Virus record (IMG/VR): IMGVR_UViG_3300040801_001435
From: a virus
DNA length: 64,000 bases
Reading direction: 5' to 3' (one strand)
Position numbers and translations under genes: made by a program. The notes under the pieces were generated by a model. That model did not search any database, had not been told where the DNA came from, and worked only from the letters and a program-made list of their open reading frames with translations. This document shows positions 8,303-64,000 of the stretch, piece by piece; position 1 is the stretch's first letter; the number at the start of each line of letters is the position of its first letter.

Positions 8303-8935
8303 TTATACCTTCTTAATATGTATTATTTCATATCTAGAACTGTCGTATAAATTGACAGTTTCTTGATAAATTCTTCTAAAATCCGCCGCAATAGAACTAA
8401 ATTTAAAGAATTTATTTTCAGATTTATCATGTAGTTTAATTTCATAAGACTTAACTTCAACTAATTCTTCTTTATTTTTAGGAATATCATTTAAAAATTT
8501 ACCAAAGATAAATAATTTATAAATAACAGCAAATCCAATATCTAAACATATATTATCATCATTACTATTAACAACGTTAAAAAAATTAGCTCCCATCCAT
8601 AAGTAAGGACTGGGAGATTTATTCAATCTATAATTCCAACCGAATAGATTTTCAACTGTATATAAAATATATTCCATATACCAATTTGTACATATTTGTA
8701 AATTTTTAATTAAATATCTATCCGTTGTTTTAGTTGGATCATTAGAACTATATTTTAATAATCCTAATATATACCAAGGTATTTTAGTAGTTAGAACTAA
8801 AAGTTCTAATTCTTCTCGATTGTTTATTGTTTTTTGTATTATTGCGGCGGCTTTCTTTTCAAAAGTCACCTTTGGAGAGCATGAACTAAATAATGTTCCA
8901 TACTCTCTTTTAAGATTTAAACTGAATTCAAACAT
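8303..8935 (-). CDS. divergent lysozyme-like family protein (COG5526-like)
   Basis: IPWYILGLL and ENLFGWNYRLNKSPSPYLWMGAN resemble the family IPW..IGxIH and ExYNGxGY...PSPYLWSGT motifs. Confidence 0.45.
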   Translation of the reverse strand: MFEFSLNLKREYGTLFSSCSPKVTFEKKAAAIIQKTINNREELELLVLTTKIPWYILGLLKYSSNDPTKTTDRYLIKNLQICTNWYMEYILYTVENLFGWNYRLNKSPSPYLWMGANFFNVVNSNDDNICLDIGFAVIYKLFIFGKFLNDIPKNKEELVEVKSYEIKLHDKSENKFFKFSSIAADFRRIYQETVNLYDSSRYEIIHIKKV

Positions 8936-9286
8936 TTAATCCCAATCTACTATTCTATAATCTTTTGACCAATTTTGTTCATTAAGAATATTAACAATTA
9001 TATTGGATAATTTATTACAACGCTCAATATCAGTAAATATATCATATAGTTTTGAACTATCCGAAACATCAATTATTATAGTTTCACCAGGGTTGATCTT
9101 TTCAAACATATAAATATCATGCAATAAATCTAATGATTCAAGAAATTTAATAATGTCTTGAGCATCATTATTTGTATCTGTTGCGTTTATTGCTATTTCT
9201 AATATTGATATTTCTCTATCCAAATTATTTGTAATAATAAAGCTGCTACTAGAACTATTAGCTACAAAATTTGTTCGTATTTTCAT
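8936..9286 (-). CDS. NSSS-motif family protein, copy 9
   Basis: MKIRTNFVANSSSSSFII. Confidence 0.85.
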   Translation of the reverse strand: MKIRTNFVANSSSSSFIITNNLDREISILEIAINATDTNNDAQDIIKFLESLDLLHDIYMFEKINPGETIIIDVSDSSKLYDIFTDIERCNKLSNIIVNILNEQNWSKDYRIVDWD

Positions 9287-9645
9287 CCATCACTCCATTC
9301 TCCAAATAAGAATATTTTAGAATCATGAGTAACATAATATCTAAGAATTTCATCCATATGGGTCATATCATCAATATTATCTTGTGTTTCTATTGATCTT
9401 GCTGAAATGTGTGTATTTTTTGCCTCTTTAATGACTTTCACCATAAACAATTTAAATTCGTCATCAAATACTTCGTCGGATAAATCATACCCTTCTGTAT
9501 CTAAAAAATACTTTTCTGCTGTTTCAGTAAATTTATCATAATCTTCATTAATATAATCATACAATGTTTTATCTTCAAATGTCGTATTCGCTATTATAAA
9601 TACGCTTGTGCTACTATTAGCAACAAGCGATGTTCTAATTATCAT
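9283..9645 (-). CDS. NSSS-motif family protein, copy 8
   Basis: MIIRTSLVANSSTSVFII; ATG 9645 in ATGA overlap. Confidence 0.8.
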   Translation of the reverse strand: MIIRTSLVANSSTSVFIIANTTFEDKTLYDYINEDYDKFTETAEKYFLDTEGYDLSDEVFDDEFKLFMVKVIKEAKNTHISARSIETQDNIDDMTHMDEILRYYVTHDSKIFLFGEWSDG

Positions 9646-10004
9646 GCAGAACAAATTCCAGTTACAAAACTACCAGTTGTTATTTTTTCATGGTAGTGAT
9701 ATAAAATATCGGCAATATATACATCGATATATTGATTTGATTGCCAATCTACTTCATCAACAATAAAACCTTTACTTTCAATACAATCATCTATATATGA
9801 ATTTGCTATCATTTGATCATACCATTGTTCAAATGATCCATCGTATTTATGGGAATTATTATCATAGTGTTTCATTGCAGCATCTTTAAATGACTGTTCA
9901 TTTTCTTTGATAAGATCCATGACAGTTAAATCTTTATCAGAATTATTGAAAATAACAAAACTACTGCTTGAGCTGTTTGCAACAAATGATTTTCTAACAA
10001 TCAC
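9642..10004 (-). CDS. NSSS-motif family protein, copy 7
   Basis: GTG start, (M)IVRKSFVANSSSSSFVI, GAGGTG RBS. Confidence 0.8.
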   Translation of the reverse strand: MIVRKSFVANSSSSSFVIFNNSDKDLTVMDLIKENEQSFKDAAMKHYDNNSHKYDGSFEQWYDQMIANSYIDDCIESKGFIVDEVDWQSNQYIDVYIADILYHYHEKITTGSFVTGICSA

Positions 10005-10353
10005 AGTCCACCTCACTTACTATAAAATTTTCAGTCGATTTTGATTTATTACCGAACATATTCATAAGTATTTTTGTTACATCTTCAGGATCTTCTGCAT
10101 CATTACTATCAGTTGCCCACCAAAACATATTAATGCTACGAGGATTAAAAATTGTATTTTTAGCATCTGATACCAATGTTTTAAATTCAACAGGAAGATC
10201 ATTATGATCAAGATATGTTTCTGATTTTTGCTTGAATTCATACAAGCACACTTCTTCAATAAATTCCCATAGTGTTTTACTATTTTTTGATGTGTTTACT
10301 ATTGTAAAACTGCATGAGCTACTATTTGCAACAAATCCAATTTTAATAATCAT
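9994..10353 (-). CDS. NSSS-motif family protein, copy 6
   Basis: MIIKIGFVANSSSCSFTI. Confidence 0.85.
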   Translation of the reverse strand: MIIKIGFVANSSSCSFTIVNTSKNSKTLWEFIEEVCLYEFKQKSETYLDHNDLPVEFKTLVSDAKNTIFNPRSINMFWWATDSNDAEDPEDVTKILMNMFGNKSKSTENFIVSEVDCDC

Positions 10354-10690
10354 TTCCTATACTAAACTCCCTATATTTTGGATCGAATGTGTCATTATAA
10401 TCTGAACTTTCAGTTTCTCTAATATTTCCATTATTAATTATGATATCATGTAATGTATTGTGATAACTAACTGAAAGTATAATAGATTCGTTTGGTTGCA
10501 TTTCTTCTTTTAAATCACTGTAAACATCCATTAATAGTTCATTTAATATTTCACATGTTTCACAAAATTTGTTTTTATCAAATATCGTATCAATTATAAT
10601 ATCATATAGTAGTTTTGTTTCATTACTATTATTTGTAATGACAAAACTGCTACTAGAACTATTTGCAACAAAAGATTGTCTTATTTTCAT
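10343..10690 (-). CDS. NSSS-motif family protein, copy 5
   Basis: MKIRQSFVANSSSSSFVI, GGAG RBS. Confidence 0.85.
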   Translation of the reverse strand: MKIRQSFVANSSSSSFVITNNSNETKLLYDIIIDTIFDKNKFCETCEILNELLMDVYSDLKEEMQPNESIILSVSYHNTLHDIIINNGNIRETESSDYNDTFDPKYREFSIGNDY

Positions 10691-10731
10691 ACTTCTCCTA
10701 TATACATATGTATGGCCTCTCCATCATACCA

Positions 10732-11034
10732 TTACCAATTACTAGTATCGGTTGACTGTTCTAATATTTCTAAAAATAGATCAGCAAAATCTGAAGCGTT
10801 GTATATTTCAATGAAATTAAATTCTTCACCAAAAGAATTATCTTTAAATCCTTCAAAGCTACCATCATCTAAATCATATTCAAGAGTTCGTTTTACTTTT
10901 TTCTGAATGTCTGTTGGAAAATACTCAAGATTATCCTTGAGAAATTCTTCTATTGTTTTTACATTTCCAGTTTTATTTATAACCACAAAACTACAGGAGC
11001 TACTATTTGATACAAAACTATTTCTTATTTTCAT
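10732..11034 (-). CDS. NSSS-motif family protein, copy 4
   Basis: MKIRNSFVSNSSSCSFVV; ATG 11034 in ATGA overlap. Confidence 0.85.
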   Translation of the reverse strand: MKIRNSFVSNSSSCSFVVINKTGNVKTIEEFLKDNLEYFPTDIQKKVKRTLEYDLDDGSFEGFKDNSFGEEFNFIEIYNASDFADLFLEILEQSTDTSNW

Positions 11035-11360
11035 GATTGATATGTCCATTGAAAGCGTTTAGTACCACCATGTTCTTTTAATCTTGATCTGAAAATTATT
11101 CCTATCGGATCTCCAGAATCATCTTCAAAAGTAACAGATGTTTTTCCAGGTTTTAAATTAGGATAATTTTTTGCAGAGTCCATTATATATTCTAACGGAA
11201 AGTTATACCATTCATCATCTTTCCAATCTTCGATAAATTCTTCAATAATTCCCATATGATCTTTAACAAATTCCTCAAACGGTATTGTTTCTTTTGTCTT
11301 ATTTAGAATAATGTATGAACTTGAACTACTATTTGCCACAAACTCTGATCGTATTTTCAT
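11031..11360 (-). CDS. NSSS-motif family protein, copy 3
   Basis: MKIRSEFVANSSSSSYII; ATG 11360. Confidence 0.85.
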   Translation of the reverse strand: MKIRSEFVANSSSSSYIILNKTKETIPFEEFVKDHMGIIEEFIEDWKDDEWYNFPLEYIMDSAKNYPNLKPGKTSVTFEDDSGDPIGIIFRSRLKEHGGTKRFQWTYQS

Positions 11361-11365
11361 ATTAG

Positions 11366-11827
11366 TTATCCTATTCTGGTTGCTCCAAATGTTTTCACAA
11401 CACCACATAGTCCACTTACATTCTCATCAGACATTTCTTTATAAATTTGCTGTTCTTCGTTTGTAAAATAATCAAGATCTATATCGTAGTCCATTTCAAG
11501 GGTATCATCATTCCAAAACTCTGAGTCACCTTCATGATTAGCAACATCCATTGTAAATACATCTGAATATTGAGGATCATAATCAATATATAATTCAGTT
11601 CCTTCTGCTTCAAATTCTACTCGATTAGTGTTTCCATCAATATATACTTCCAACCAATAATCATCTTTTTTTGGATATTTCAATTCTCTAACATTGTAAT
11701 TATAATGATTTGTAATTTTATGCTTCCTAAGCCATGAGTTAAATACATCTCTGTTTTTAATATAACCAATTCCACACATAAAGCTACTGGAACTACTATT
11801 TGCCACAAAACTTGACCGTATTTTCAT
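11366..11827 (-). CDS. NSSS-motif family protein, copy 2
   Basis: MKIRSSFVANSSSSSFMC; ATGA overlap with the phosphatase stop. Confidence 0.85.
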   Translation of the reverse strand: MKIRSSFVANSSSSSFMCGIGYIKNRDVFNSWLRKHKITNHYNYNVRELKYPKKDDYWLEVYIDGNTNRVEFEAEGTELYIDYDPQYSDVFTMDVANHEGDSEFWNDDTLEMDYDIDLDYFTNEEQQIYKEMSDENVSGLCGVVKTFGATRIG

Positions 11828-12321
11828 TTGTAGTTTATCCGACGAAGTTCATTTATATCTTTGTCTGAAATGTCTTTTCCAAAAGCTTTCATACATAATT
11901 TATATATATGAAAATTTGGGGCATATTGATATATCCCAAATAAACGTACAGGATTATCACCAAGGTACATTTCTCTTATAGCAAATGCTACAGCGGGAGA
12001 TCTTGATACTCCAGCTTTACAATGAACGATAAAAAAGTCAACATTGTTTTTGTACGTTTCTACAAAATTACGAATTTGTATAGCATGATTCAAATCCATT
12101 AAAATATCATTTTGCAGAGTTCCACCACCACAATTAAGAGATTCTATATCGGAAACTTCCAAAGATAAAACCCCTTTGAGACTATCATTAGGAAAAAATT
12201 TTGCTGGACCGTCACCTTCAAAAGTATCATACATACTTATAATTGCATATACGGAATCGGATTTTTTATATGCAAACTTTTCTGCTTGTGCTCTAGACAT
12301 AATTTTGACAGAGGTAAACAT
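11824..12321 (-). CDS. protein tyrosine/dual-specificity phosphatase-like (CX5R)
   Basis: VHCKAGVSRSPAVA P-loop. Confidence 0.85.
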   Translation of the reverse strand: MFTSVKIMSRAQAEKFAYKKSDSVYAIISMYDTFEGDGPAKFFPNDSLKGVLSLEVSDIESLNCGGGTLQNDILMDLNHAIQIRNFVETYKNNVDFFIVHCKAGVSRSPAVAFAIREMYLGDNPVRLFGIYQYAPNFHIYKLCMKAFGKDISDKDINELRRINYK

Positions 12322-12432
12322 TTCAATTCCTTTACTATTGATCGTATGACAAATTTATTATGAATTACATGGATATTGTAATAATCATAATATCCGTCAA
12401 TTAATTCAGAAAATCCATAACCTATTTCGTCA

Positions 12433-13986: not shown

Positions 13987-15132
13987 TTACACATCGTAAA
14001 CTGGACAATTTCGTTTATTTTTAATTAATGTATTTCTCCATTCAATAACTCTGGGATTAAACCACACGTCTTTCAAAAAGTCGCCGCAATCAACCACAGA
14101 AATACCTTTCTCCCATCCAGGAGTTCCTTCAATAAATGAACAAGGGAAAAATTCACCATCAACATTAATATATGAAGAAAACAATCCGGATTCACATGGT
14201 TCACATGTCAACTCATAGATTTTTTTATTAGGCATATCTTCAACACTCTTCATGAATTTATTAGCACAACAGCTATCAAATCCAAGAGGAACATTTTCTT
14301 GTAAGCAGTATTTAACAAGTTTTTTAAACTCATCAAATTTAACCTTATTAAATCCAACACCTCTTCCTTTCTGTTTCAATCCAAGAAGAACAATTGCATT
14401 TAGATTATCTTTAAGACCACTATAGTTAGATAGATAATCTTCAACAGTTTCATATACATGATCCAAAGTTTCATCTGAAATCATGATATGAATATTTACT
14501 TGATTAAGACCTGATTTTTTAAGATTTGAAATACCATCATAACATAAGTCTTTATCATCATATCTACTTACACTTACTGCTCCACACACACTTGCTAATT
14601 TTTCAGCAAGTTCTGTATCACAATCAGACACAGTAGTATTTGGAACATATCCTTTTTCACGGCAATATTTGAAAATATCATACCATTCAGGATTGCTACT
14701 ACAATCACTATCCACTCCAAATGCTACTTGTGTAAGAGCAAAAGGATACTTATCTATCACTTTTTTAAAGACATCAAGTGACATATTAGAACCCCGATTG
14801 GGTGTATTATTTTTGTAACAAAATGTACAAAGTTTTCCCCCAGGCCCTTTGCATTTAGTGGTGATTTCAATATCAGCAATTTCAGGGCCAAAAGGACTAA
14901 ACATAGGATCGTGAGCATACGATCTACCAAATCGTATAAATGCTCCTGTTTCTTTGTTAAAGTCATAATTGTATTCTCTTGATGTGATGCTTTTGTGTAT
15001 TTCATTATTAATCGGCGCATAAAAATTACGGTTTTTCATAAATCGCCGAATATGTTTTCTGATATATTTCCTATCAGCACCAGTATATTTACAAATTCTG
15101 TCAGTCATAATCTTTCTAATAGAAGTCTTCAT
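13987..15132 (-). CDS. radical SAM enzyme with C-terminal SPASM/twitch-like region
   Basis: DIEITTKCKGPGGKLCTFCY (CX7CX2C); C-terminal CEPCESGLFSSYINVDGEFFPCSF...RNCPVY. Confidence 0.85.
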   Translation of the reverse strand: MKTSIRKIMTDRICKYTGADRKYIRKHIRRFMKNRNFYAPINNEIHKSITSREYNYDFNKETGAFIRFGRSYAHDPMFSPFGPEIADIEITTKCKGPGGKLCTFCYKNNTPNRGSNMSLDVFKKVIDKYPFALTQVAFGVDSDCSSNPEWYDIFKYCREKGYVPNTTVSDCDTELAEKLASVCGAVSVSRYDDKDLCYDGISNLKKSGLNQVNIHIMISDETLDHVYETVEDYLSNYSGLKDNLNAIVLLGLKQKGRGVGFNKVKFDEFKKLVKYCLQENVPLGFDSCCANKFMKSVEDMPNKKIYELTCEPCESGLFSSYINVDGEFFPCSFIEGTPGWEKGISVVDCGDFLKDVWFNPRVIEWRNTLIKNKRNCPVYDV

Positions 15133-23412: not shown

Positions 23413-24660
23413 CTATGTTTTGAATTGTATAAATGTTGTTCTATTAATAAGTTGAGCAAAATGTTCTTTATCGGCTTTTCTCATAAATATATTAGATATT
23501 GCAATTGGTGTATAATCATATTTTCCAGACTTTTCAATATCATATTTATTTCCAAAAGATGGATAATCAGGTAAACTATTTGTTGTTTCTGTTATTATAA
23601 ATCGTTTAATATGTTCTTTTGCTATTTCCTTATTTGTGTCATATCTTTTTTGTGCATCATCTGGTGAATCTGGAACATAAATTCGACTATATGTCGTTGA
23701 TTGATTAATTGAATTTGATGATATTCCACCGTCCTTTGATACTCCTATTTTTCTACCATCTGTTAGTTGAACATCTTTAACACTACTTTTCTTTTTTGGA
23801 ATTTTTGATTGTGGTACTACTTTATGTGCGTATCGCATATTACTAGTAACAAATACAGGAACATGTCCATCTTTATTATATTTTTTAGAAATATCTGTGA
23901 ATGGAATTTCTTTAACTATTTTTGTCAATCTATCCATATCTGGAAATAAATTAATTTTTTGACTTTTTTGATCTTTTAATTTTAATATATTAATATAATA
24001 ACCTACAATTTCATTTTTTGTTTTCCCATCAAACGAAAAGTTATCAAAATAATAAAATGTGAAATTATTTGTTGGTTTATATATATCTATTAAATAGCTT
24101 GGAATATTTGCGTCATTTGACATTTTAAGTAACATTTGTTCATACTGAAAATTGTTCTTATTTTCAGTAGCACCAAAGTGTTTAAAATCAAATACATCAC
24201 CATAATTTTCAGTAAGCCATCCTTCATAATTTTTGAGAGCCTGATATGCCGTTATGTTATTTTCAATTGTATTATATGTATTTGTTGTTCCCATATAATA
24301 TAAAATAGGATGTACTAATACTAATGTTACATGTATATGGTTCTCATTAAAATTAAGAGGCCCTTGTGGTTCAACGTTAATACATAATAATGTTTGATTA
24401 AATATTGTTTTCCATTCTTTATCATGAAATTGACTTATTTCATCAACTATTCTAATATTTAGTTTTATTTCTGGAAAATCATTTAAAGAAACACGTTCCA
24501 TAAATGATTTTACAGTAATTTGTGGTAAAAAAATTTTAAGTATGGCTATACCAGCCATACTATAAACAGGGGATCTTAAAAAACAGCAAAAATTACAATC
24601 TACTACTTTTTGCTCTTCTATTTTTGCTGTTATTTCATAGTGAAATTGTGCTGAATTCAT
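23413..24660 (-). CDS. hypothetical protein, possibly tail/baseplate hub-like
   Basis: 415 aa, beta-rich N-terminus; no diagnostic motif, so the function is a guess. Confidence 0.3.
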   Translation of the reverse strand: MNSAQFHYEITAKIEEQKVVDCNFCCFLRSPVYSMAGIAILKIFLPQITVKSFMERVSLNDFPEIKLNIRIVDEISQFHDKEWKTIFNQTLLCINVEPQGPLNFNENHIHVTLVLVHPILYYMGTTNTYNTIENNITAYQALKNYEGWLTENYGDVFDFKHFGATENKNNFQYEQMLLKMSNDANIPSYLIDIYKPTNNFTFYYFDNFSFDGKTKNEIVGYYINILKLKDQKSQKINLFPDMDRLTKIVKEIPFTDISKKYNKDGHVPVFVTSNMRYAHKVVPQSKIPKKKSSVKDVQLTDGRKIGVSKDGGISSNSINQSTTYSRIYVPDSPDDAQKRYDTNKEIAKEHIKRFIITETTNSLPDYPSFGNKYDIEKSGKYDYTPIAISNIFMRKADKEHFAQLINRTTFIQFKT

Positions 24661-26528
24661 AATTGATTCATAATTTCCTCAAATTGTTCATATGTTATAA
24701 TTTTTGTTCCATTTTTCTCTGCTTTCATCATTTTGTTTGATTTCTTATTTGGATTATCTGTCACAAGTAACTGTGTTTTTTTTGTAATTGACTTATCTGC
24801 AACATGTCCTTTATTTTCAATATAATTGAAATACCAATCTCTTCCACGATCATAAGGATCTTTCCCAGTAAAACATATATTAATTGATTCTTTGTTAGTA
24901 TCTATTTTTTGCACATTGTCGTCAATTTTAATTATTTTAAGCAACGCATCAATATATGTTTTATTATCATGGAGATAATCAAAAATATCTCTTGCTCGTT
25001 CTATTCCTATATTTGGTATTTCCATTAGCCGTTCTTCAGAAATCCGCCGCAATAAATCAAAACTAACAGATTTAAGAATATCTTTACTAAGAGATCTACC
25101 AACACCATCAATATTGAAACTTGCTAACACTCTCCAATTAGGAACAGGATTATTTTTAACTTTATCAACTTCTAAAATGAAGTTTTTAGAAGAAACATCG
25201 CCAAACTTATCAAGTTTAATTATATCACTGTATGTCAAATTGAATACATCAACTAAATTAGAACACCCCAAGTCAGTAATTAATTTACTAACTGTGCTTG
25301 GGCCAATATTTTCAATTCCTATCTTTTTGATACTGTCTGTTAATCGTTTTTGTAATGTACTTCCACATACATCATTTAAACATCTTAAATTTGGACCATC
25401 CCATGTTAATATGGATTCACATGAGGGACAATGTGTTGGTGGAACTATTTTCTTACTATTCTTTCCTCTTGATATTAAACTGTGATACTGTGGGATTATT
25501 TCACCAGCTTTTTGTAAAATAATTTTATCACCAATTCTAATATCATTATCCATAACAAATTTCCAGTTATGTAAATTGACACGTTTATTAATATTTCCTG
25601 CTATTTCTACAGGTTCAACAATACCAACAGGAGTTATTGCAGATTTTCCTATACTTAATTCAATATCTATTATAGTTGTTTCACCAGTTGGATTTTTAGG
25701 TTTAAGTGCTAATTCTCCTCTTGGATGATGTGACGTATTTCCTAAAGACTCCTTATATTCTTTATCTTTAAGTTTTATTACAATACCATCCATAGGAAAT
25801 CCAAGCGATTTAAATTGATTTTTAGCATATTCTATTGCATCTGACATATTTACTAAATTGGTTTCTATACTGTATGTATTGAAATCTACAAAATGTATAT
25901 ATCCTAAAAACTTAGAATCAACAGTGTCTTTACCTAAAATTCCACCAACTGCACTTCTTGATGTTTTATATTTATCTCCATTTCCTCTAACAAACAATGA
26001 TCTATTGTTTTCAAAAACATCATCTCTAATTAGAATTTCGCCACGAACATCTTTTTGGACATCTGGTAAATGTATTACTATTGGTGTACCTTCGTTATCT
26101 TTTGTAATACACACGATGATACTAATTTTATCACTAAGATCAATTCCAACATCTTCTTTTGCTCTTGCTCTTGTATATAATAGTAATTTTTCATGCTCAA
26201 AATTTGCACTTATACCATCATATTTCGGTTCAATTATAAAAAGTTCACTTTCTGATCTTGCATATTTTTTTGCCCATAATAAAACATTATTAATATCATA
26301 TGCTTTATCAAGAGATATCATTGTTACTGATTTCTTTATTTTCTTCTTTTTGTCACTATTTGGAATTTCTTCTAAATAATTAATAATAAGTTCATTATTT
26401 GGATCAAGTTTTTTAAGTGCTTCTATAAGATTATCATAATCAATGTCAGATATTTCAGGAGTACCATTAATAAATTGTTGATTATGATATTCTATTGTTT
26501 CTTCAAGTAATTTAATTTCTTTTTTCAT
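24657..26528 (-). CDS. ligA: NAD-dependent DNA ligase
   Basis: ISDIDYD, EPKYDG, RGE, DGIVIK, TSHHPRGELALK, Zn finger CPSC...C, HhH repeats, C-terminal BRCT. Confidence 0.95.
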   Translation of the reverse strand: MKKEIKLLEETIEYHNQQFINGTPEISDIDYDNLIEALKKLDPNNELIINYLEEIPNSDKKKKIKKSVTMISLDKAYDINNVLLWAKKYARSESELFIIEPKYDGISANFEHEKLLLYTRARAKEDVGIDLSDKISIIVCITKDNEGTPIVIHLPDVQKDVRGEILIRDDVFENNRSLFVRGNGDKYKTSRSAVGGILGKDTVDSKFLGYIHFVDFNTYSIETNLVNMSDAIEYAKNQFKSLGFPMDGIVIKLKDKEYKESLGNTSHHPRGELALKPKNPTGETTIIDIELSIGKSAITPVGIVEPVEIAGNINKRVNLHNWKFVMDNDIRIGDKIILQKAGEIIPQYHSLISRGKNSKKIVPPTHCPSCESILTWDGPNLRCLNDVCGSTLQKRLTDSIKKIGIENIGPSTVSKLITDLGCSNLVDVFNLTYSDIIKLDKFGDVSSKNFILEVDKVKNNPVPNWRVLASFNIDGVGRSLSKDILKSVSFDLLRRISEERLMEIPNIGIERARDIFDYLHDNKTYIDALLKIIKIDDNVQKIDTNKESINICFTGKDPYDRGRDWYFNYIENKGHVADKSITKKTQLLVTDNPNKKSNKMMKAEKNGTKIITYEQFEEIMNQL

Positions 26529-30387: not shown

Positions 30388-30789
30388 TCACGTTCCAACC
30401 TTTTTCACACCCGTTCCTTTACAATGTTGACATAGTTCTAATGGTGAATTTATAACAGCCATTATTTCTTCTAAATAATTATCTATTTTTTCCAATAATT
30501 CTCGTTCTGAATCTGCGGTTAATCCATCAATTATTGTATATCCTTTATATTTTTCTCGATCATGAGTCATTTCAAAACATACAACATTAAGTTCTTGTTT
30601 ATAACTGGTTTTTAAATTACTTAATGTAACATATTTAATAGGATCAAATAGTTTTAATGTTTTTTTAACCCCAAAACAAAAATCACAATCGGATGTTATT
30701 GTTGCATATTTTGGATCAATGTTTAACTTAATATAATCTCTAACAAGATCATACATATTTTTTGATGATATTTTATATTGTTTATTCAT
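30388..30789 (-). CDS. hypothetical protein with C-terminal DnaJ-type CxxCxGxG
   Basis: CQHCKGTG. Confidence 0.6.
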   Translation of the reverse strand: MNKQYKISSKNMYDLVRDYIKLNIDPKYATITSDCDFCFGVKKTLKLFDPIKYVTLSNLKTSYKQELNVVCFEMTHDREKYKGYTIIDGLTADSERELLEKIDNYLEEIMAVINSPLELCQHCKGTGVKKVGT

Positions 30790-31312
30790 CTATTCTTCCG
30801 ATAAAATTGACATTAAATAATTCACTGTCTTTAATCATCATCTCTTTTTCCTCATCGCTATAATCTTCAAATTGTACGATTTTTTCTTTGATAACATCAA
30901 TTTCATCTGAATCTCTCAATTCATTAAGTTTTCCAGTTAATATTGCGTTGTTAAGTTGTTCTTTAAGATCAGGTATTGTTTTACATGGAATTCTATCTCT
31001 AAATGGTATATTTTTCATATCTATACACATATTTCCATTTTTATACCGACACCTACAAAATGGAAGAACACACGGGTATTCTTTTAAAGAATCTCGTAAT
31101 TTGTCTGCTAATTTTGATTTTGATGTTGCCAAAATTGAATGACATTTTTCACATTTATATTCAATTTTGCCTTTTGTCGCAAATTCATAATCACCATCAT
31201 AGTAAAATGTTGAGCCACATGGATCAAATCCACAAATTGTTCGTTTAGTTATAACATTAGTTTTAGTTTCAATAATTGTTGTTGGTTTATTACAATGTGG
31301 GCATGTTATCAT
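30782..31312 (-). CDS. Cys-rich Zn-ribbon protein
   Basis: CPHC, CEKC and further Cys. Confidence 0.55.
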   Translation of the reverse strand: MITCPHCNKPTTIIETKTNVITKRTICGFDPCGSTFYYDGDYEFATKGKIEYKCEKCHSILATSKSKLADKLRDSLKEYPCVLPFCRCRYKNGNMCIDMKNIPFRDRIPCKTIPDLKEQLNNAILTGKLNELRDSDEIDVIKEKIVQFEDYSDEEKEMMIKDSELFNVNFIGRIDE

Positions 31313-37468: not shown

Positions 37469-37491
37469 ATTGCGGCAAATTTCGCCGCAAT
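37469..37491 (-). terminator. hairpin built on the CGCCGCAAT motif
   Basis: attgcggc-aaatttc-gccgcaat just downstream of the 37498 stop. Confidence 0.55.
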
Positions 37492-37888
37492 TAACCATTA
37501 ATATTTAACATATCGTGGAATTTCTTTATTTTCATTCAAAAGGTATTGTCCAAGAAGCCACTTTCGCATAAATATATCATAACACTTTTTACAAAAAGCC
37601 ATATCAAATGCTGTGTATATTTTTCTATCAGTAACAACTTTAAGTCCATCAACTCTCATTTCATAGTAGTCTGTTCTAATACGTTCATGTTTATATAATA
37701 TATTATCACAATTAATACATCTAATTTCAGATAATGTAATATTTGGTGTATGATATTTCTTTTTGAGTTTTTCAAAAAACGCAAGTTCCTTAATATGGTC
37801 ACATTTGTGTGACGATACTTTTTCTTTATTGTCAAATAATTCATAACAATATTTACATTTAAACACTTTCTGTTCAACTAAAAAATCA

Positions 37889-38179
37889 TCAACATTCATA
37901 CAAGTTCCTCCATATTTTCATAAATTCATTACAATAAGTTTGACCAAATACTTCTTCCACTGAATTTTGGATTAGGAATTTAAGTTTTCTTTTGTTAATT
38001 CCTAATCCAATAGCTTTATTTGTGAAATCATCCCAATCACAAACAAGATTTCTTTTTTTCATTTCTTCCAAAATAATTTCAAGTGGTATTCCATAAGTAT
38101 TATACAAATAGAATACATCACCAATTACTAATTGTCCATCTGTTGTGTTACCAACAACTTTAGTTGGACATTTTCTCAT
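37889..38179 (-). CDS. alanyl-tRNA synthetase-like helical fragment
   Basis: GDVFYLYNTYGIPLEIILEEMKKRNLVCDWDDF vs AlaRS AFKLYDTYGFPLDLT....RGLxVDxxGF. Confidence 0.7.
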   Translation of the reverse strand: MRKCPTKVVGNTTDGQLVIGDVFYLYNTYGIPLEIILEEMKKRNLVCDWDDFTNKAIGLGINKRKLKFLIQNSVEEVFGQTYCNEFMKIWRNLYEC

Positions 38180-43726: not shown

Positions 43727-44919
43727 TATATAAATCTCCCAAACCTATCAACTTCCGTATATGGAATAAGTGATACAGTTCTTCCTGGTTTTTGACTACT
43801 TACTGTAATTGGACAAATTCTTCCAAAATGTGTTTCATGAATTGTTTGTATTTCTTTTGGAGGATGTTCTACACCAGGAGATACCATATTAACTTTATGT
43901 TGAGGAATACTACTGAAGAAATTTACTGGTTCATATATATAATTTCCTGATAATCCTCCCATTTTCTTTCCAGCGGTATTAGTTTGTTGTTTTTTACCAG
44001 AAGCTCTAAAATATTTAATTATAGACATATTATCTATTTTTATTTCATCATATAAAATCCCTCGCCAAACTTGTTTAGCGAAATTTGCGATTTTATCAAA
44101 AAATGGCCGCAATAACAACTCAATAAAAATTAATCTTTTATTAGCCAAGTCAACAAAGTTAAACGTGTCTTTATGAATATATTTATTAAGTGCCCATACT
44201 AACAAATATTCCAAATCAGAAGAAGAATAACAAGTATTATACAATTCATCTGTATAATAGTCAAAAATTACATCAGATATAAATTGTCTTGCTTTATCTA
44301 TATCATCAATGTTATTATTTCCAAAAGCATTTCTAAAATAAGTTACAATTTCCTCATCCGGATGAGTATCATGTTGTTTTTTGTGATTTTTAAGAAACGC
44401 ATTATATAATTCTAAACTTTCAACCTTTTCAAAAAATAATTGAAAGAAATATGATAGTGGTATATTTATTCCAGTTAAAATTGCAATATCATCTTTAAAA
44501 TAAATAGTTAAACCATTCAACAATCCATAGAATTGTATACTTTTTTCTTTGATAATAATAGGATAATCAACAACATACATTGCTGGAACATATATTGTTC
44601 CATTTAGATTGAATGTGCATCCATCTAACAATGTTGGTATTAGAATGTTTAAAAATGTTTTTTCATATTTTTCTTCATCTGTTGTATATGCGTCAGTTTT
44701 TATTATTAGTTCGCTAAAACAACTATTAAATAACCCGATATAATTTATCCGTTCTTTGAAATCTATATTTTTAACATTAATATATCTATTACCAAATTTC
44801 AATAAATATTCCATAGCAACAGAAGCAAAATATGGTATTATGCTATATTGATATTCTCTGAAATTAGTAACAGATAATATATCAGTATTTGGTTGTTTTC
44901 TTTTTTGTAGTGTATTCAT
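43726..44919 (-). CDS. phage RNA polymerase beta subunit, N-terminal part
   Basis: Ends with IHETHFGRICPI...GR (beta VHPTHYGRVCPI region); coupled to the beta-C gene. Confidence 0.75.
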   Translation of the reverse strand: MNTLQKRKQPNTDILSVTNFREYQYSIIPYFASVAMEYLLKFGNRYINVKNIDFKERINYIGLFNSCFSELIIKTDAYTTDEEKYEKTFLNILIPTLLDGCTFNLNGTIYVPAMYVVDYPIIIKEKSIQFYGLLNGLTIYFKDDIAILTGINIPLSYFFQLFFEKVESLELYNAFLKNHKKQHDTHPDEEIVTYFRNAFGNNNIDDIDKARQFISDVIFDYYTDELYNTCYSSSDLEYLLVWALNKYIHKDTFNFVDLANKRLIFIELLLRPFFDKIANFAKQVWRGILYDEIKIDNMSIIKYFRASGKKQQTNTAGKKMGGLSGNYIYEPVNFFSSIPQHKVNMVSPGVEHPPKEIQTIHETHFGRICPITVSSQKPGRTVSLIPYTEVDRFGRFI

Positions 44920-55227: not shown

Positions 55228-57798
55228 TTGAAAATGGAGAATAAATTGATCACGTTAAAGCCAAACGAAGTTTTGAATTTTATTAATAATACAAGTGTAC
55301 ATGCTAATATACAAATGCAATATGCTATACATCCATTTATAATAAATAAAGATAAAAATGAAGAGTATCACTCAAGAAAAATCAACCTTTCAAGAGAAAT
55401 ACGAGCAAATAGATTTGGTTATAATGGATCATATTGTATCATGAATGTACCAAAAGAAGAACATAATATGAATCATTTAATTTGGCGTATTCATTTAGGA
55501 CGAATGATTACGTATTATCGTGACGTTGATAAAAAGTCAACTAATAGAAACATTCAAGATTTTGATAACCCAGGTGTACACTCTTGTTTCAGAAAAACAA
55601 AAGATACATTTGGAGGAACAAATATTTTATTTTTAGATGTTGATAATAGTGATCCAAATACTGAATATACCAATTTATATGATTTTATTAAAACACATAA
55701 CAATTATGCTATGATTTATACATCATATAATCATACAGACAATCATCATAAATTTAGAGTTATTTATCTACTTGATGAAATCATTACAACTGAAGATAAA
55801 ATGAAAGCAATCTTTAGTGAAATTTCTAAAGGTATTAATTGTGACTCAAGTTGTTTCACTTGTGATAAAGGATTCTTTGGAAATACTAATGCTATGTTTT
55901 TCATACCAGATCAAATTACACCTTTAATAGTGTCGAATTATGAAATCCCGCCGCAATCAAACAACAAACAAAGAGTTAAAATGAATACAATAACATCGGA
56001 TATTCAACTTAGACAAATAAACAAAAGAAATTTCAATATATTTAAAAAATCATGTTATGTTTTTAATAATATGTCAGATAAATCAAAAGTTAATCATCAA
56101 GAGTGGTTTACTATAGTTAATAATTTATCTAAATTTAAAGGTACATTGAAACATACACAACAAAATATAATTGGTAGATGGCCTAATTTAGATAAATTTA
56201 TTTCTACTTGGAATTATCAATCTACTAAAAATCCAGGATATATTTCTTGTGATTGTAGATATAAAGATAAATGTAGTTTATTAAAATTTAATCCTAATGT
56301 TAATTCTATATTTCAATTCCTTACAAGTAGATCCCCTTTAAATCCTAAATACATGTCAACAGTTAAATCAGATGATATTGAATTAAGTAATTTAGATACA
56401 GTTTATAATAATGTTGAATCTACATTTTTAGACATTGTTAATAATAAACCTAATGGTAAATTATACGTTATTCATGCTGAAACAGGTTTAGGCAAAACAC
56501 ATATTCTTAAAAAACATGCTATACCTGCACTTTATTGTTTTAAAACACATCAGCTATCTGATGAATTTGAAATTGGTACAGCATTTCCAGTTATCAATCC
56601 AGAATTTCCATTTTATGAAGATATACAATATTGTTATGAAAATGGAATATCATCATCACATATAATTAAAGACGCATTTGAAAAACATCCTACAGATCCA
56701 TCTGTTATACATTATCAAAATCAATTAATAGCTTTTAGAAACAGCAACATATCAAAAATAACACATTCAAGATTAGTTAGATCAAACAATATTTCTGATA
56801 TTGCAAATCACAATACAATTATTATTGATGAAGATATATTAACTAATTTAGTTGAAGTTGGAACAATTGGTATGAAATATTTATTTAACATGTTGAAGGT
56901 TCTTCCAAAAGAAATTTCAACTGCAATTAGAAATGAGTTGATGAATCATAAATTTCCTGTTGGATGTAACGAAAATGTTATTAATGATACTGTCAAATTT
57001 CAACTACAGAAATTCATTCGTGAAAAATCTAAGTCAAAGGAGACATACACAGGGCTTGTTAAATTTGTTGAAAGTTCACACTATACATATAGCGCATATA
57101 GTGACGGGCTATCTCATGCCAAAAGTTTTGTTCCTGAAATTATGAAACTTTTAGCATCTGGTAAAAAAATAATAGTTCTTTCGGCCACACCTAATAAAAA
57201 ACTATATGATCATATATTTAAAGATAAATTAGAATTCTTTTCATTCCCAAAAATTAAGGAGAGAGGAACATGTACAATTTTCAAACCCATTTCTTGTTCA
57301 ATTTTTAAATCAACGATCAACAGGGCAAGTTCAGATAGTGTTAAGAGAATTATTCATGATATTTGTGATCATTTTGGAATACCTCGAAAGAACATAATAT
57401 CATATAAAATGCTTAAAGATAAATGTGACATTGATATTTCAGGATACTTTTTTAATATTGAAGGGTTTAATAGTTTATCTGGTCAAAATATTCTTGTTTT
57501 TGGATTACCAATGCTTCCACTTAGAACATATTTTGTTATTGCAAATGCTCTTGAAATCAATATTAACGATTTCTGTATAGGAAAACAAAACATTTTTGCA
57601 GACGGGTATATTTATCACGGAAGAACATTTGATAATGATCTACTACAAGCATTTCACATACATATGATTGAAAGTGAAATTGTTCAATCAATTGGTCGTG
57701 CAAGATTATTGCGGAATAATTGTAATGTTATCGTTGTATCAGATATTCCATTTGGAAATAAATATTATGATGTCCTACCCATCAACATAGAGTACTGA
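55228..57798 (+). CDS. AEP primase fused to SF2-type helicase (replication initiator-like)
   Basis: FLDVDN and YTSYNH...HKFRVI (AEP); AETGLGKT, IIIDED, LSATP, QSIGRAR (SF2 motifs I, II, III, VI). Confidence 0.75.
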   Translation: MKMENKLITLKPNEVLNFINNTSVHANIQMQYAIHPFIINKDKNEEYHSRKINLSREIRANRFGYNGSYCIMNVPKEEHNMNHLIWRIHLGRMITYYRDVDKKSTNRNIQDFDNPGVHSCFRKTKDTFGGTNILFLDVDNSDPNTEYTNLYDFIKTHNNYAMIYTSYNHTDNHHKFRVIYLLDEIITTEDKMKAIFSEISKGINCDSSCFTCDKGFFGNTNAMFFIPDQITPLIVSNYEIPPQSNNKQRVKMNTITSDIQLRQINKRNFNIFKKSCYVFNNMSDKSKVNHQEWFTIVNNLSKFKGTLKHTQQNIIGRWPNLDKFISTWNYQSTKNPGYISCDCRYKDKCSLLKFNPNVNSIFQFLTSRSPLNPKYMSTVKSDDIELSNLDTVYNNVESTFLDIVNNKPNGKLYVIHAETGLGKTHILKKHAIPALYCFKTHQLSDEFEIGTAFPVINPEFPFYEDIQYCYENGISSSHIIKDAFEKHPTDPSVIHYQNQLIAFRNSNISKITHSRLVRSNNISDIANHNTIIIDEDILTNLVEVGTIGMKYLFNMLKVLPKEISTAIRNELMNHKFPVGCNENVINDTVKFQLQKFIREKSKSKETYTGLVKFVESSHYTYSAYSDGLSHAKSFVPEIMKLLASGKKIIVLSATPNKKLYDHIFKDKLEFFSFPKIKERGTCTIFKPISCSIFKSTINRASSDSVKRIIHDICDHFGIPRKNIISYKMLKDKCDIDISGYFFNIEGFNSLSGQNILVFGLPMLPLRTYFVIANALEININDFCIGKQNIFADGYIYHGRTFDNDLLQAFHIHMIESEIVQSIGRARLLRNNCNVIVVSDIPFGNKYYDVLPINIEY

Positions 57799-59760: not shown

Positions 59761-59803
59761 ATTTCTATATTAGATTTTATAATTTAAAAATTTATATAGA
59801 AAT
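59761..59803. promoter_or_regulatory. divergent pair of TATAGAAAT motifs
   Basis: Minus copy 59761-59769 and plus copy 59795-59803 between divergent genes. Confidence 0.6.
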
Positions 59804-59834
59804 ATGCAAAGTAACATTTTATTTTAACATTATT

Positions 59835-61454
59835 ATGGAGGAACAAGTGCGACTATCACAACGACTGATAATAATAGACAACGGATTAGATTTTAAAGGA
59901 ATATTACATTGTGGTGTATTGCGTGTTGTTGATAAATTTTGTTTTGAACTGAAATTAAGACGGTTTAAAATTATCAGTGATGAAATTTTCGCAACAGTTA
60001 AATCTGAAATAAATAAACACTCATTTGATAGAGTTGATTTGATTGACAAGATTGATAATGATATATTGTTCACTCATTTAATGTCGTTGTATGATTGTGA
60101 ACAATATTATCAATTTTTAGGTAAACAAATTAATCATATTTTAACGAATGACCCGGATAAAAGCAACAATAAATATTATCGATTTATTATTGATAATAAA
60201 CTTAAAGTTATTTTATCTCTTATTGATGCTAAACGATTGTATTCTGATATCCAATCTTTTGTAAATAATTATATGACGCTTGATAGTATTTATAAACTAA
60301 TTATGACGCAACAATTGTCAGATACTTCTATTGAAGATCATCATGATCCTGAATATTATGATTATGTAAATAATGTTGCTGCTGATGTAAAAGAAACTCT
60401 TCATGAAAAAGATCTACAAAGTGGGATCATTGAACAATCGTATTTTGATGATGTATTGGATTTATGTTTAAATAATGCTGTTAAATCATATATTTTACAT
60501 GAGACACTAACATATTTTGGAACGAATTCCGCCGCAATAAAACACGAAGACAATAAAATAATATTACCAAGTCTTTTCAGAAACATACCATTTTTCCCTT
60601 CAAGTTATCTTAAAACATTAATTATATCTCTGTCAAAAATAGGCGAACATAAATTAGATCATTATATAGGACAGATTATTGTTTATCTTAAAAGTAATAA
60701 TAAAGACCAAGTTAAAATATTTATAGCTACATTTTTATTGTTTTTATATTATTTGGTTAAAACTTATAAAACACATCCAGGAGATGTCTTGTTGTCATTA
60801 GAAATTTGGATTTCTAAAATTGAAACTCAAACTAAATTATTGAATTATTATACACAAGATAATAATTTAACATTTGAAGTTATTTCTGTTAAAGAAGAAA
60901 ATGAATTTGATAAGATATCAGAAATATCAGAGAAACATAAATATCTACTTAGAGTTTCTCCTGATGAATTTGTAACTACTGTTTTTACCGAATATATCGA
61001 TTTAAAAGAAAATAAACAAAAACCGATGTCATTTAATTTATCACATCCAACGGTTATTAATATTACTCGTTACTTTTTTAATGATAACGTGACTATGCTT
61101 ACAAATTATAGACCAAATCAAGAATCAAATCCAGAAGTGATAACTTTTGCATATGGGTATTTTCTTAACTTTGTTTCTAGTTCTGATTTGTCTAAAGATA
61201 TTCTTCTAAAAAATACAACTATTCCAATCACGGTATTAAAACTATTTCCTATATTATCGAATAATATTAATAGTAAAAATTTTAATAAAGACATTGTAGA
61301 TACGTTTGTTTTTTATAAAACTGTTTGTGGGTTTTTAGAAGACCCTTCTATATTTCAGCATATTGATATATTGTATATAGTATTTCAAATTATTATTCCT
61401 TATTATTATCATATGTATGAACAGACAACTTTTACTGATTACTTTTTGGGATAA
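59835..61454 (+). CDS. large hypothetical protein
   Basis: 539 aa, no recognised motif. Confidence 0.75.
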   Translation: MEEQVRLSQRLIIIDNGLDFKGILHCGVLRVVDKFCFELKLRRFKIISDEIFATVKSEINKHSFDRVDLIDKIDNDILFTHLMSLYDCEQYYQFLGKQINHILTNDPDKSNNKYYRFIIDNKLKVILSLIDAKRLYSDIQSFVNNYMTLDSIYKLIMTQQLSDTSIEDHHDPEYYDYVNNVAADVKETLHEKDLQSGIIEQSYFDDVLDLCLNNAVKSYILHETLTYFGTNSAAIKHEDNKIILPSLFRNIPFFPSSYLKTLIISLSKIGEHKLDHYIGQIIVYLKSNNKDQVKIFIATFLLFLYYLVKTYKTHPGDVLLSLEIWISKIETQTKLLNYYTQDNNLTFEVISVKEENEFDKISEISEKHKYLLRVSPDEFVTTVFTEYIDLKENKQKPMSFNLSHPTVINITRYFFNDNVTMLTNYRPNQESNPEVITFAYGYFLNFVSSSDLSKDILLKNTTIPITVLKLFPILSNNINSKNFNKDIVDTFVFYKTVCGFLEDPSIFQHIDILYIVFQIIIPYYYHMYEQTTFTDYFLG

Positions 61455-61496
61455 AAATAATTCACTATGTGTCCAAGTGACACATAGTATTTTTTT

Positions 61497-61705
61497 GTAA
61501 ACAAACAGAGAGCCCATGACATCCGAAGACATCATGGGCTCTCTGTTTGGGAAGACAACACCTCTAGTTTATTAGTGTCTCATAGTCCGAAGACTACAGA
61601 GGAGGACTCGCTTGCGCGAAACCTACCAAATGATAGTCATTTCACGCAAGGTTGACCTTGAGACATAAAATTAAAGAGCCTATTCAAATAGACTCTTCTT
61701 TTTTT
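61497..61705 (-). ncRNA. unidentified structured RNA
   Basis: Two cUUCGg tetraloop hairpins, a multibranch core, G-U pairs valid only on the minus strand, upstream TATAGAAAT at 61716-61724. Confidence 0.65.
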
Positions 61706-61983
61706 CACCTTTATAATTTCTATATGTATTTTTTAATTATACAAATTAATGTTTAGCTGTAGATATTACTGGAGCAAAATTTCCAGTTTTAATTGCTTCG
61801 GTGATATGTTTATCTAATTTATCTCGTTCCATCATTATTTTATTTAATGATATTGGATCAGCAACATCAACAACATATATTAGCAAGTCAAGTAAACTTA
61901 ATAGATACAATAATTCTGTGTCTATAAGTGTTCCACTTGAAATCTTGCTAATAAATAATTCTATTGTGTGTTTTATATTTTCT

Positions 61984-62337
61984 TTATTTTTGTCCAACAA
62001 GTTTTTCTAATGCTTTCATATTAATATTGAATACAGATGGTATATTTTCTCGCAATAGTTCTGAAATCAATTCAGATTTGATTTTGTTTGTGTTTTCTCT
62101 AAATCCTTTCAATTCATTTCTTAGTGTACGTATTTTTACTTGTTGATCATGTTCCAGTTCTTTACAGCGAAGAAATTCCGAAATTAAATGTTGTGTTGAT
62201 TCTGATATTCCTAAATCTTCTCTTTTAGTAACAGTAAAGTCAGTTTTTTTAAAGACAGATTTTTTCCACATAGTTTTAGTCTCCATAGTATTGTCTAAGT
62301 TTTTTGTAATTGATTGTGAAAAATTCGGTTTTACCAA
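61984..62337 (-). CDS. small coiled-coil protein
   Basis: Heptad-rich; paralog-like to adjacent 62276-62563 (ELLRENI vs DLLRKLM). Confidence 0.55.
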   Translation of the reverse strand: MVKPNFSQSITKNLDNTMETKTMWKKSVFKKTDFTVTKREDLGISESTQHLISEFLRCKELEHDQQVKIRTLRNELKGFRENTNKIKSELISELLRENIPSVFNINMKALEKLVGQK

Positions 62338-62620
62338 GGCTCATTAATTTTCTGAGTAAATCGTCTCGCAGGGATTCTTTTCTCTTTTTTATTTTTCTGA
62401 TAGTCTTTTTTGCATCATTAATACGTTGTCTTTCTCTGGATACATCTCTGTTTAGTACGGACATTGCTTGCACAATATCAGAAATAGACTCTGTGGAAGA
62501 TTTTTCTCTAAAAAATTCATTAGCCTCTGCTGCATTTACTCCTTTAAAGAATTCACTAGTCATAGTTTCTCCTTTTGTTTAAAAATAAAAAATAATATGA
62601 TTAACCACAACACTCGATAT

Positions 62621-62643
62621 ATTTCTATATATTATACAGAAAT
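62621..62643. promoter_or_regulatory. divergent pair TATAGAAAT / TACAGAAAT
   Basis: Minus copy 62621-62629; plus copy with 1 mismatch 62635-62643. Confidence 0.5.
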
Positions 62644-62655
62644 ATATAAATTATT

Positions 62656-63132
62656 ATGATTAGAAAAAAGAAGCGTGTTAAACGCAAAAAAATATATTAT
62701 ACATATAAAGGTAATCGTTGCAGTAAAGGTGAATATCGAATAGCAACCATACTTGAAAAATTAAATATTCCATTTACAAGAGAACAAACATTTTCTACAT
62801 GTAAATCTCCTAAAAACAATCCTCTTAGATTTGATTTTTTTATTAAGCAATATGGTCTTCTTATTGAGTTTCAAGGACATCACCACTATAAACCAATAAG
62901 TAAGAGAAAGAAAGATATTGCCACACATAAGCGGACTGTAATACATGATCAAATCAAAGAAGCATTTGTTAGAAGACATAAATACAATTATGCTAAAATA
63001 CCATATAAATACATTGATAGATTAGATAGTATTATTAAATCATTAGTTCGTAACATGGAAGAAAAAAATAAAGAGGATGTATATATTTATGACGAAGCTA
63101 ATAAAGAAACAGATAACAACTCAGATAAATAA
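62656..63132 (+). CDS. PD-(D/E)XK / Vsr-like endonuclease
   Basis: SKGEYRI...LRFDFFI...LIEFQGHHHY. Confidence 0.7.
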   Translation: MIRKKKRVKRKKIYYTYKGNRCSKGEYRIATILEKLNIPFTREQTFSTCKSPKNNPLRFDFFIKQYGLLIEFQGHHHYKPISKRKKDIATHKRTVIHDQIKEAFVRRHKYNYAKIPYKYIDRLDSIIKSLVRNMEEKNKEDVYIYDEANKETDNNSDK

Positions 63133-63418
63133 TTTTTTCAAAATAACAGATATTCCAATTGGATCACTTCTTATAGATGTTTGTGATCAATCGTCTATAG
63201 GAAACGAAATAACTTGCAAGTTTGTATATTTAGTTGATTTAGAAGCGCCTGTAGAAAAGGAAATGTATTATATTTTTATGACATCTGAATGCTCTGAACT
63301 TAATTGCGATATTAGTGATCTTAAATTTATTTATAAATTTGGAAACAAATACTTATTTGAAAATCCATATCCATGTTCTATTGAATATCTTAAACAGATG
63401 GGTGATATCTGTGAGTGA
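63077..63418 (+). CDS. hypothetical protein
   Basis: ORF in the plus-strand operon. Confidence 0.5.
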   Translation: MYIFMTKLIKKQITTQINNFFKITDIPIGSLLIDVCDQSSIGNEITCKFVYLVDLEAPVEKEMYYIFMTSECSELNCDISDLKFIYKFGNKYLFENPYPCSIEYLKQMGDICE

Positions 63419-64000
63419 CGATGTTTATGTTATTGATAAATTTGGTAGGAAAGTTAAATTGGATTTAGTTATTGACGAAGACAGCAAACAGGTTCAAGTT
63501 AAGTTATCCCGCCGCAATAAAACAAAAATTCCAGATATTAAAGAAAATGATATCATTTTACGAAGAACAGAAAGTAATTAAGCAAACCCAAACAAAGAAC
63601 TACGATATAGACGACTACAGAAATCCACCAAAGAAAAATATCATTGGATACAGGACCAAAGTTATTGATCCTGACCTCAATGGAAAAAGAGTTCTCATTC
63701 GTTTAGCTTTACTTAAAAATGGAACTACTAAAGCTATTTCTAAATGGGTTGCCCGGCAAGCTGATTAACAATAGGTTCAGCATTAATATTTTCTATAATG
63801 GGAAACTGTTGTACATGTCTTTCTTGTTCACGATAGAATCCAGTTTGCATTTCCTGTAAATCATAGCAGTTTGAAAAATCAACACCTCTTTCAATTAGAT
63901 ATTGTTTGACAACTTTAGCTAGTTTTTCATCTTCTCTTATTGGTTTATTAAATTTTAATTTTATTTGTCCAACTTGGTGATATGGCTGTGTGCAATTTTC

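Follow-up and report, generated by a model that had tools for sequence, protein, structure and literature searches.

Why should a short word rich in G and C be dispersed through the genes and spacers of an AT-rich phage genome, and almost always on the same strand? The question is raised by CGCCGCAAT in a stretch of 64,000 nucleotides (nt) from IMG/VR virus record IMGVR_UViG_3300040801_001435, the whole of which is referred to below as the window. We conclude that the word is a genome signal selected at the level of DNA, being neither a coding feature nor a product of chance, and that its orientation follows the genome axis and not the genes. Our tentative suggestion is that it is recognised by a phage enzyme acting on a single strand of the DNA.

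The source is an uncultured AT-rich jumbo phage. Its window has a GC content of 28% and small, tightly packed genes, mainly on the minus (-) strand. Fragment assemblies of the same phage from several samples, with overlaps that are 99.95-100% identical, were used to build a composite of 109,330 bp that runs from -35198 to 74131 in window coordinates, the contigs being chained via proteins at the window edges.

Copies of the word

The preliminary description, made from the window alone, had reported eight exact copies of CGCCGCAAT, and all eight were found where it had put them, seven on the plus (+) strand and one on the minus strand. Dinucleotide shuffles give 0.03 expected copies, and the 8-mer near-copies that it gave at 44106 (+), 27819 (-) and 37469 (-) are also present. 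Five further exact copies with full flanks lie outside the window, at -34778, -30310, -17270 and 66625 on the plus strand and at -8314 on the minus strand. The composite total is 13, or about one per 8 kb, with about 0.05 expected in 109 kb. In an unbiased order-2 Markov scan CGCCGCAAT and its sub-words came top at every k from 7 to 10 (P ~1e-17), with the next-ranked word several orders of magnitude behind. The copies show no significant clustering near the primase and origin-like region (scan statistic P=0.67), and their spacing is no more even than random. The copies in the window and two related sites are as follows, with position-matrix scores in bits for some.

8378..8402 (core 8384-8392), + strand: copy of the word, antisense in the 210-amino-acid (aa) gene 8303..8935; 29 bits
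8831..8855 (core 8841-8849), - strand, the minority strand: copy of the word, sense in the same 210-aa gene 8303..8935, where it reads AAAI; 37 bits
14076..14100 (core 14082-14090), + strand: copy of the word, antisense in the radical-SAM gene 13987..15132
25039..25063 (core 25045-25053), + strand: copy of the word, antisense in the NAD-dependent DNA ligase gene 24657..26528
37469..37476, - strand: complementary 8-mer, left arm of a hairpin, pairing with 37484-37491
37477..37501 (core 37483-37491), + strand: intergenic copy of the word, the core forming the right arm of the hairpin; 30 bits
44105..44113, + strand: weak near-copy GGCCGCAAT, its flanks A-rich; 10.5 bits, excluded from the family
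55943..55967 (core 55949-55957), + strand: copy of the word in variant AATCAAAC, sense in the AEP primase-helicase-like gene 55228..57798
60524..60548 (core 60530-60538), + strand: copy of the word, sense in the 539-aa gene 59835..61454
63504..63528 (core 63510-63518), + strand: copy of the word at the 5' end of the 98-aa open reading frame (ORF) 63472..63768

The site at 44105..44113 is possibly a decayed or minor one. The form AATCAAAC taken by the copy at 55943..55967 avoids a TAA stop.

Anatomy of the word

The constrained unit extends well beyond the core. The extended consensus of about 25 nt is RAAWYC-CGCCGCAAT-MAAMCA..AA, and the aligned copies are conserved from -6 to +18, with both flanks (-6..-1 and +9..+18) exceeding the 99% null and many flank columns above the 99.9% null. 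The similarity of the flanks had been pointed out in the preliminary description, and the C that it noted five bases after the core is indeed there in all eight window copies. It is on one and the same strand that the two flanks are A-rich. The site accordingly lacks dyad symmetry, and the core itself is not palindromic.

A position matrix gives the 13 copies (11 when first scored) 29-39 bits, and the best scores after these are of 10-16 bits, from no more than three weak variants (GGCCGCAAT), each of them on the plus strand. With this gap, from 29 down to 16 bits, the copies form a discrete family with no cloud of decaying members. The longest identity between any two copies is 21 nt, shared by those at 60530 and -17270. 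RNA and DNA folding of 45 nt to either side of the copies gave no common structure except for the hairpin formed by 37469-37476 and 37484-37491. It is followed by a T run on the minus strand, and is the intrinsic terminator of gene 37498..37899 and a special case.

The word within genes

Of the 13 copies in the composite three are intergenic. The ten within genes are divided equally between sense (five) and antisense (five), and between them they use every antisense frame and two of the three sense frames. The earlier statement that the word is embedded in all six frames was thus slightly overstated, as the third sense frame is used only in an overlapping alternative ORF, and there the usual AATAA flank would give a TAA stop. 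The conclusion drawn from it, that protein coding cannot explain the word, stands nonetheless on this use of frames and on a codon-shuffle null: when synonymous codons were shuffled within genes about 0.3 coding copies were expected, against 8 observed in the first 104 kb. The copies in genes make use of rare GC-rich codons.

In the case of two conserved enzymes it can be seen how the word came to be there. The copy in the ligase gene encodes LLRRI, which aligns without gaps to RLLEA of Thermus LigA in the helix-hairpin-helix region, and the copy in the radical-SAM gene encodes DCG, where the 47%-identical protein of Klebsiella phage KP15 has EAN, again in a conserved ungapped block. Because both copies lie in ungapped conserved blocks, the word and its flanks must have been written in by substitutions, and the conservation of the flanks therefore reflects function and not shared descent from an inserted cassette. 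A copy-paste origin of the flanks, by mini-insertion, is ruled out by the same ungapped protein alignments.

The analysis thus confirms that the word is a DNA-level signal under selection, neither a coding feature nor one due to chance. We suggest that annotators be warned by this case, as islands of rare codons in the genes of AT-rich phages can be DNA signals.

A diverged sister word in a relative

The nearest protein relatives of the phage are very divergent, the RNA polymerase (RNAP) beta' subunit being 45-47% identical. A profile search of IMG/VR gave 80 loci, of which a k-mer screen flagged one strongly. This is a contig of 109 kb and 24% GC, referred to here as G001, with 46% beta' identity to the window phage. 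Its top word is GCCGCTT(CCAAAA), with 30 copies on the plus strand and 12 on the minus strand as against 0.75 expected per strand, and with the consensus aaWTTT-GCCGCTT-CCAAAA. The architecture is that of the window word, with a 5' flank of A/T then pyrimidine, a GCCGC core, a short variable part and a run of A, and the G001 word is a diverged sister of the window word. In G001 24 of the 42 copies (57%) are intergenic and at least 17 sit 18-41 nt upstream of a start codon, these upstream copies carrying an extra conserved block, AATAATCTA. The spacing of the G001 word is 2.6-3.6 kb.

With regard to other relatives, the closest at the protein level, L100-L103 (47% RNAP identity, 21% GC), has neither a copy nor a comparable enriched word in 23 kb, and in the k-mer screen none of 77 further RNAP relatives had an analogous GCCGC word. 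A weak excess of TTCCGCAA in L196 was not sustained in its 89-kb record. Scans for the extended word gave singletons at chance level throughout, with 99 hits in IMG/VR, 51 in JGI metagenomes without this phage and, among the matches listed, singletons only in GTDB genomes, and therefore show no host or other carrier.

Repeats of other kinds were seen in several RNAP-encoding relatives. L182 (IMG/VR 3300025605_000018) has five copies of the palindrome ATATTCGGCCGAT, L237 has seven 69-nt tandem repeats containing GATCGTCC at 291-712, and in L194, L209 and L217 one strand has 12-21 copies of AGTGAACCA within about 20 kb.

Orientation, the inverted block and strand skew

The strand bias claimed for the word does not reach significance within the window by itself (7:1, p=0.07) but becomes significant in the composite, where 11 copies are on the plus strand and 2 on the minus strand (binomial p=0.022). 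The bias is independent of the direction of the genes: there are 4 plus and no minus copies in plus-strand gene territory, and 6 plus and 1 minus in minus-strand gene territory. The same is true of G001, where the minus-strand gene blocks at 89-100 kb have five copies, all of them on the plus strand (5:0). The orientation of the word thus follows the genome axis, and not the genes, in both phages, and with the two genomes pooled the bias is 41:14 (p=0.0004). There is no switch of orientation within the 109 kb of the window phage, which is an incomplete genome.

Comparison of the two phages provides a natural experiment. In tblastn searches the minus-strand block of the window phage that carries RNAP, ligase and SSB genes (-35 kb to 55 kb) and its plus-strand block at 62-68 kb both map to the plus strand of G001, and one block has therefore been inverted between the phages. 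Despite this inversion the word lies on the plus strand in both blocks of the window phage. The word has kept its genome-axis polarity, and this makes the question a testable one.

A strand on which T exceeds A and G exceeds C is of the leading type, that is the lagging-strand template, and it is there that Chi, KOPS and primase words concentrate. We estimated skew at four-fold sites, separating the transcription-linked part from the strand-linked part. The strand-linked AT skew of the word-rich strand is -0.095±0.022 in the window phage and -0.062±0.019 in G001, and the strand-linked GC component in G001 is +0.096±0.049. By skew the word-rich strand would be the lagging-strand template, but this is suggestive only, with few minority-strand genes behind it. 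The strand asymmetry would then reflect replication.

Contig ends at copies of the word

Independent contigs have 47 true ends on the composite, of which three are no more than 10 nt from a copy, as against 0.12 expected (P=2.5e-4). They come from two samples and are as follows.

-30301: end of contig L173
-17268: end of contig L119
63522: end of JGI contig L106, 4 nt after the core 63510-63518

None of 49 other GC-rich islands (at least 8/10 GC) has a contig end, and a generic effect of GC islands on contig ends is thus not supported. An assembly artefact from k-mer repeats is also rejected, as copies share at most 21 nt and such repeats therefore do not explain the breaks. The pattern would fit a discontinuity, either partial or confined to one strand, by which the coverage spanning the site is reduced, and is a hint of this.

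What the word may be

The preliminary description had proposed an oriented protein-binding signal, of the Chi, KOPS or parS kind among others. An oriented signal at the DNA level it is, as seen from the gene-independent orientation, the ungapped blocks and the T>A skew shared by the two phages, but the analogies with parS, Chi and KOPS fit less well. The interpretation that we favour, although as a tentative one, is that of a genome-axis-oriented site for a strand-specific DNA enzyme of the phage, for nicking or priming. The asymmetric word of about 25 nt would be the recognition site of a phage-encoded enzyme acting on one DNA strand. Most probably it would interrupt a single strand at a specific site, in the way seen with the nick words of T5, phiKMV/LUZ19 and tf/Rembedalsseter, and a close alternative would be a fixed priming point for the phage AEP primase-helicase on the lagging-strand template. 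The reader of the word would thus be encoded by the phage, and the DNA may be physically interrupted at the sites, the hint of this being the ends of assembled contigs.

Several observations weigh against such an enzyme. Pfam and PHROG scans of about 50 proteins gave no HNH, GIY-YIG or other obvious nickase, and there is no homologue of the AEP primase-helicase in the 109 kb of G001. Copies on the other strand (2 of 13 here, 12 of 42 in G001) are not to be expected from nick words of the tf type, which are strictly one-stranded, and one copy per 8 kb is too sparse for ordinary Okazaki priming. In the window phage the skew at four-fold sites has no significant GC part. The contig-end signal consists of three events and is post hoc, and microdiversity at the sites could also cause it. 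Logan DNA contigs span the copies at 8384, 8841, 14082, -30310 and -34778 uninterrupted, other contigs likewise continue across copies, and any interruption must therefore be one-stranded or partial. Finally, the frequent placing of the G001 copies between genes and shortly before starts would also suit a transcription signal.

The last point brings us to the rival that we take most seriously, namely that the word is a promoter, operator or activator site for one of the multisubunit RNAPs of the phage or an associated factor, with the intragenic copies driving or blocking internal or antisense transcripts, possibly primer RNAs. The phage does encode split beta and beta' subunits, a length of 25-30 nt is typical of phage-RNAP promoters, and in G001, in addition to the intergenic majority, the copies upstream of start codons are on the coding strand and are followed by a Shine-Dalgarno sequence, with AATAATCTA. 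However in the window phage 10 of the 13 copies are intragenic, half of these antisense, and none is in promoter position. The gene-upstream positions are already filled by another word, TATAGAAAT, that follows gene orientation (36 on the minus strand, 10 on the plus strand), the five G001 copies in minus-strand gene territory all point against the genes, and spacers are so short that any intergenic element would be put 20-40 nt from the next start. We consider a transcription signal unlikely on balance.

A signal for a host enzyme is a good deal less probable. The word would in this case be Chi-like (for RecBCD or AddAB) or a KOPS-like translocase guide, accumulated in its active orientation as in coliphage LLS and Pseudomonas phage MD8. 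It is over-represented and strand-biased, and like Chi and KOPS it is on what by skew would be the G/T-rich leading-type strand; its complementary strand contains GCGG, which is the core of Firmicute Chi words. Against this, the known words have only 5-8 nt and their flanks are not conserved, while here the constraint covers about 25 nt, and the extended word was found only as chance singletons in the genome, viral and metagenome scans (for GTDB among the matches listed; the core alone was not part of the scans). The core extension also differs between the lineage word types, being GCCGCAAT in the window phage and GCCGCTT in G001, and specificity therefore changes with phage lineage. A strand-specific phage enzyme is favoured over Chi on several such points: the word extends over 25 nt, its family is sharp, its core is specific to the lineage, its density is low, and there is the hint from contig ends. 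We regard as least probable, and indeed as very improbable, a strand-indifferent double-strand binding site for an architectural, segregation or packaging protein such as an HU partner, a ParB-like protein or a terminase small subunit. The word is long, specific and dispersed as such a site might be, and there are divergent pairs at 37469/37484 in the window and at 8027/8060, 18770/18800 and 109085/109121 in G001. However it lacks dyad symmetry, having A-rich flanks on the same strand, it is not clustered by the scan statistic already given (P=0.67), and the pooled 41:14 bias (p=0.0004) is kept across an inverted block.

To return to the strand-specific enzyme, a more far-reaching proposal can be built on it: that there is a lineage of RNAP-encoding jumbo phages with a fast-evolving replication-axis word of about 25 nt that marks one-strand interruption or priming, and that selection for polarity rewrites the word into conserved enzymes after inversion of a 90-kb block. 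We put this forward as a speculative and somewhat doubtful extension.

Other features of the phage

Upstream of many window genes, after an A/T-rich stretch, is TATAGAAAT, which is oriented with the genes. Examples are as follows.

3898, 8272, 29355, 37408, 43172, 51987, 55143, 59762, 61717, - strand: TATAGAAAT, gene-upstream
55191, 59795, + strand: TATAGAAAT, gene-upstream

In 109 kb TATAGAAA occurs 36 times on the minus strand and 10 times on the plus strand, and G001 has 6 copies, all on its gene strand. The phage polymerase probably has its main promoter in TATAGAAAT.

The public runs that contain the phage are microbial-mat metagenomes and metatranscriptomes from a single study. A search of cultured phages at the nucleotide level gave no match to the window, and the protein-level relatives found among cultured phages are at most 32% identical. 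The window genes include those for a split multisubunit RNAP (beta' and beta), the NAD-dependent ligase, the radical-SAM enzyme and an AAA ATPase, and the window also encodes an AEP-primase-like helicase fusion, FEN, DHH, ADP-ribosylglycohydrolase, RNase H and a Gad1-like protein.

Between the radical-SAM protein (13987-15132, - strand), taken over its full length, and KP15_135 of T4-like Klebsiella phages (173 phage records) the identity is 47%, which is an unexpectedly close link between a low-GC uncultured jumbo phage and enterobacterial Straboviridae. The Gad1-like protein, of 133 aa (30388-30789, - strand), matches the C-terminal half of the Gabija anti-defence protein Gad1 (Pfam PF25705, E=1e-35), and its N-terminal part may be encoded by ORF 30782-31312, next to it on the upstream side. 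In contig L173 (12693-14870, about 24-26 kb left of the window) there is a ribonucleotide reductase large subunit split by an intein with a LAGLIDADG endonuclease domain (Pfam).

Two sites are of note with regard to assembly. The segment 16405-16690 is present as a separate contig in all four runs, at about 25x depth as against about 6x for the phage, with several base differences and with loose ends on both sides, and is a short segment that the phage has in common with another, more abundant genome or element. The other site is about 3.0-3.2 kb left of the window start, where four contigs of different samples and runs end within 125 nt of each other (L107, L113, L114, L115, L117) and L117 has a 113-nt deletion; this is an indel polymorphism or a repeat that breaks assemblies, and the source contig of the window probably ends there.

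Comparison with known systems

The closest parallels are the nick words, of which we consider those of the Pseudomonas phages tf and Rembedalsseter, of phiKMV/LUZ19 (CGACNNNNNCCTACTCCGG) and of coliphage T5 (R/GCGCRGG). Phage tf has 14 copies of TACTRTGMC on a single strand, all nicked (PMC3517423), and Rembedalsseter has 13 copies of WACTRTGAC, all nicked, unevenly spread and 88% of them in coding sequence (PMC11780129). In LUZ19 the nick word is the intergenic CCTACTCCGG, and it has no relation to transcript levels (PMC3604761). Like these the window word is dispersed, over-represented, asymmetric and unevenly spread over coding and intergenic DNA, in the range of one per 3-25 kb; it lies nearly on one strand irrespective of convergent transcription units, and relatives keep the same or a variant word. 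As with the T5 word, the core is GC-rich relative to the genome. The window word differs in its copies on the other strand (2 of 13, and 12 of 42 in G001), in a consensus longer than the tf 9-mer and in its setting, an unrelated jumbo phage with its own multisubunit RNAPs, and for it nicks are a proposal, hinted at by contig ends.

In the case of Chi, the copies in LLS are 20:3 in orientation and those in MD8 are 32:0, with Chi the top octamer in MD8, and such oriented Chi is host Chi accumulated by phages without recombination modules (PMC12315714). The window word resembles that of the Chi-saturated phages (LLS, P1, MD8) in being the most over-represented word of its genome with a strong orientation bias that is independent of the genes. 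It differs in having about 25 nt constrained, as against a host word of 5-8 nt without flanks, and in that the word differs between two related phages. The AEP primase-polymerase of NrS-1 recognises an 8-nt template word (PMC8718748), and AEP template words in general (NrS-1 TTTGGTTA / GTGR; pRN1 ORF904 GTG) are strand-specific and are read on single-stranded template by an AEP enzyme that is fused to a helicase. Such a fusion is encoded in the window, and the window word is on the strand that by its skew would be the lagging-strand template. However those words are only 3-8 nt long, and a copy per 8 kb is far below Okazaki spacing.

Other systems are less alike. The stoperators of cluster A mycobacteriophages, 13-bp asymmetric repressor sites, are similar in that two to three dozen are dispersed over spacers and genes, but their orientation follows transcription and that of the window word does not. 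The organiser sites parS / NBS, matS and SBS are dyad-symmetric, unlike the window word. In the case of KOPS and SRS the orientation switches at origin and terminus, whereas there is no such switch in the 109 kb available of this incomplete genome. A phage RNAP promoter would not be expected to be mostly intragenic (10 of 13) with an orientation independent of the genes.

Oriented dispersed words are a known kind of feature in phages, with functions that are mostly unknown. Beginning with T5, phages have been known to have such words, and site-specific interruptions of one strand, in their DNA. To these the window phage, from a jumbo-phage lineage that is unrelated, adds a word that is long and very sharply defined, together with a sister word in a relative. 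The novelty is in the lineage, in how long and how sharp the word is, in its diverged sister, and in the evidence, provided by an inverted block, that polarity itself is selected.

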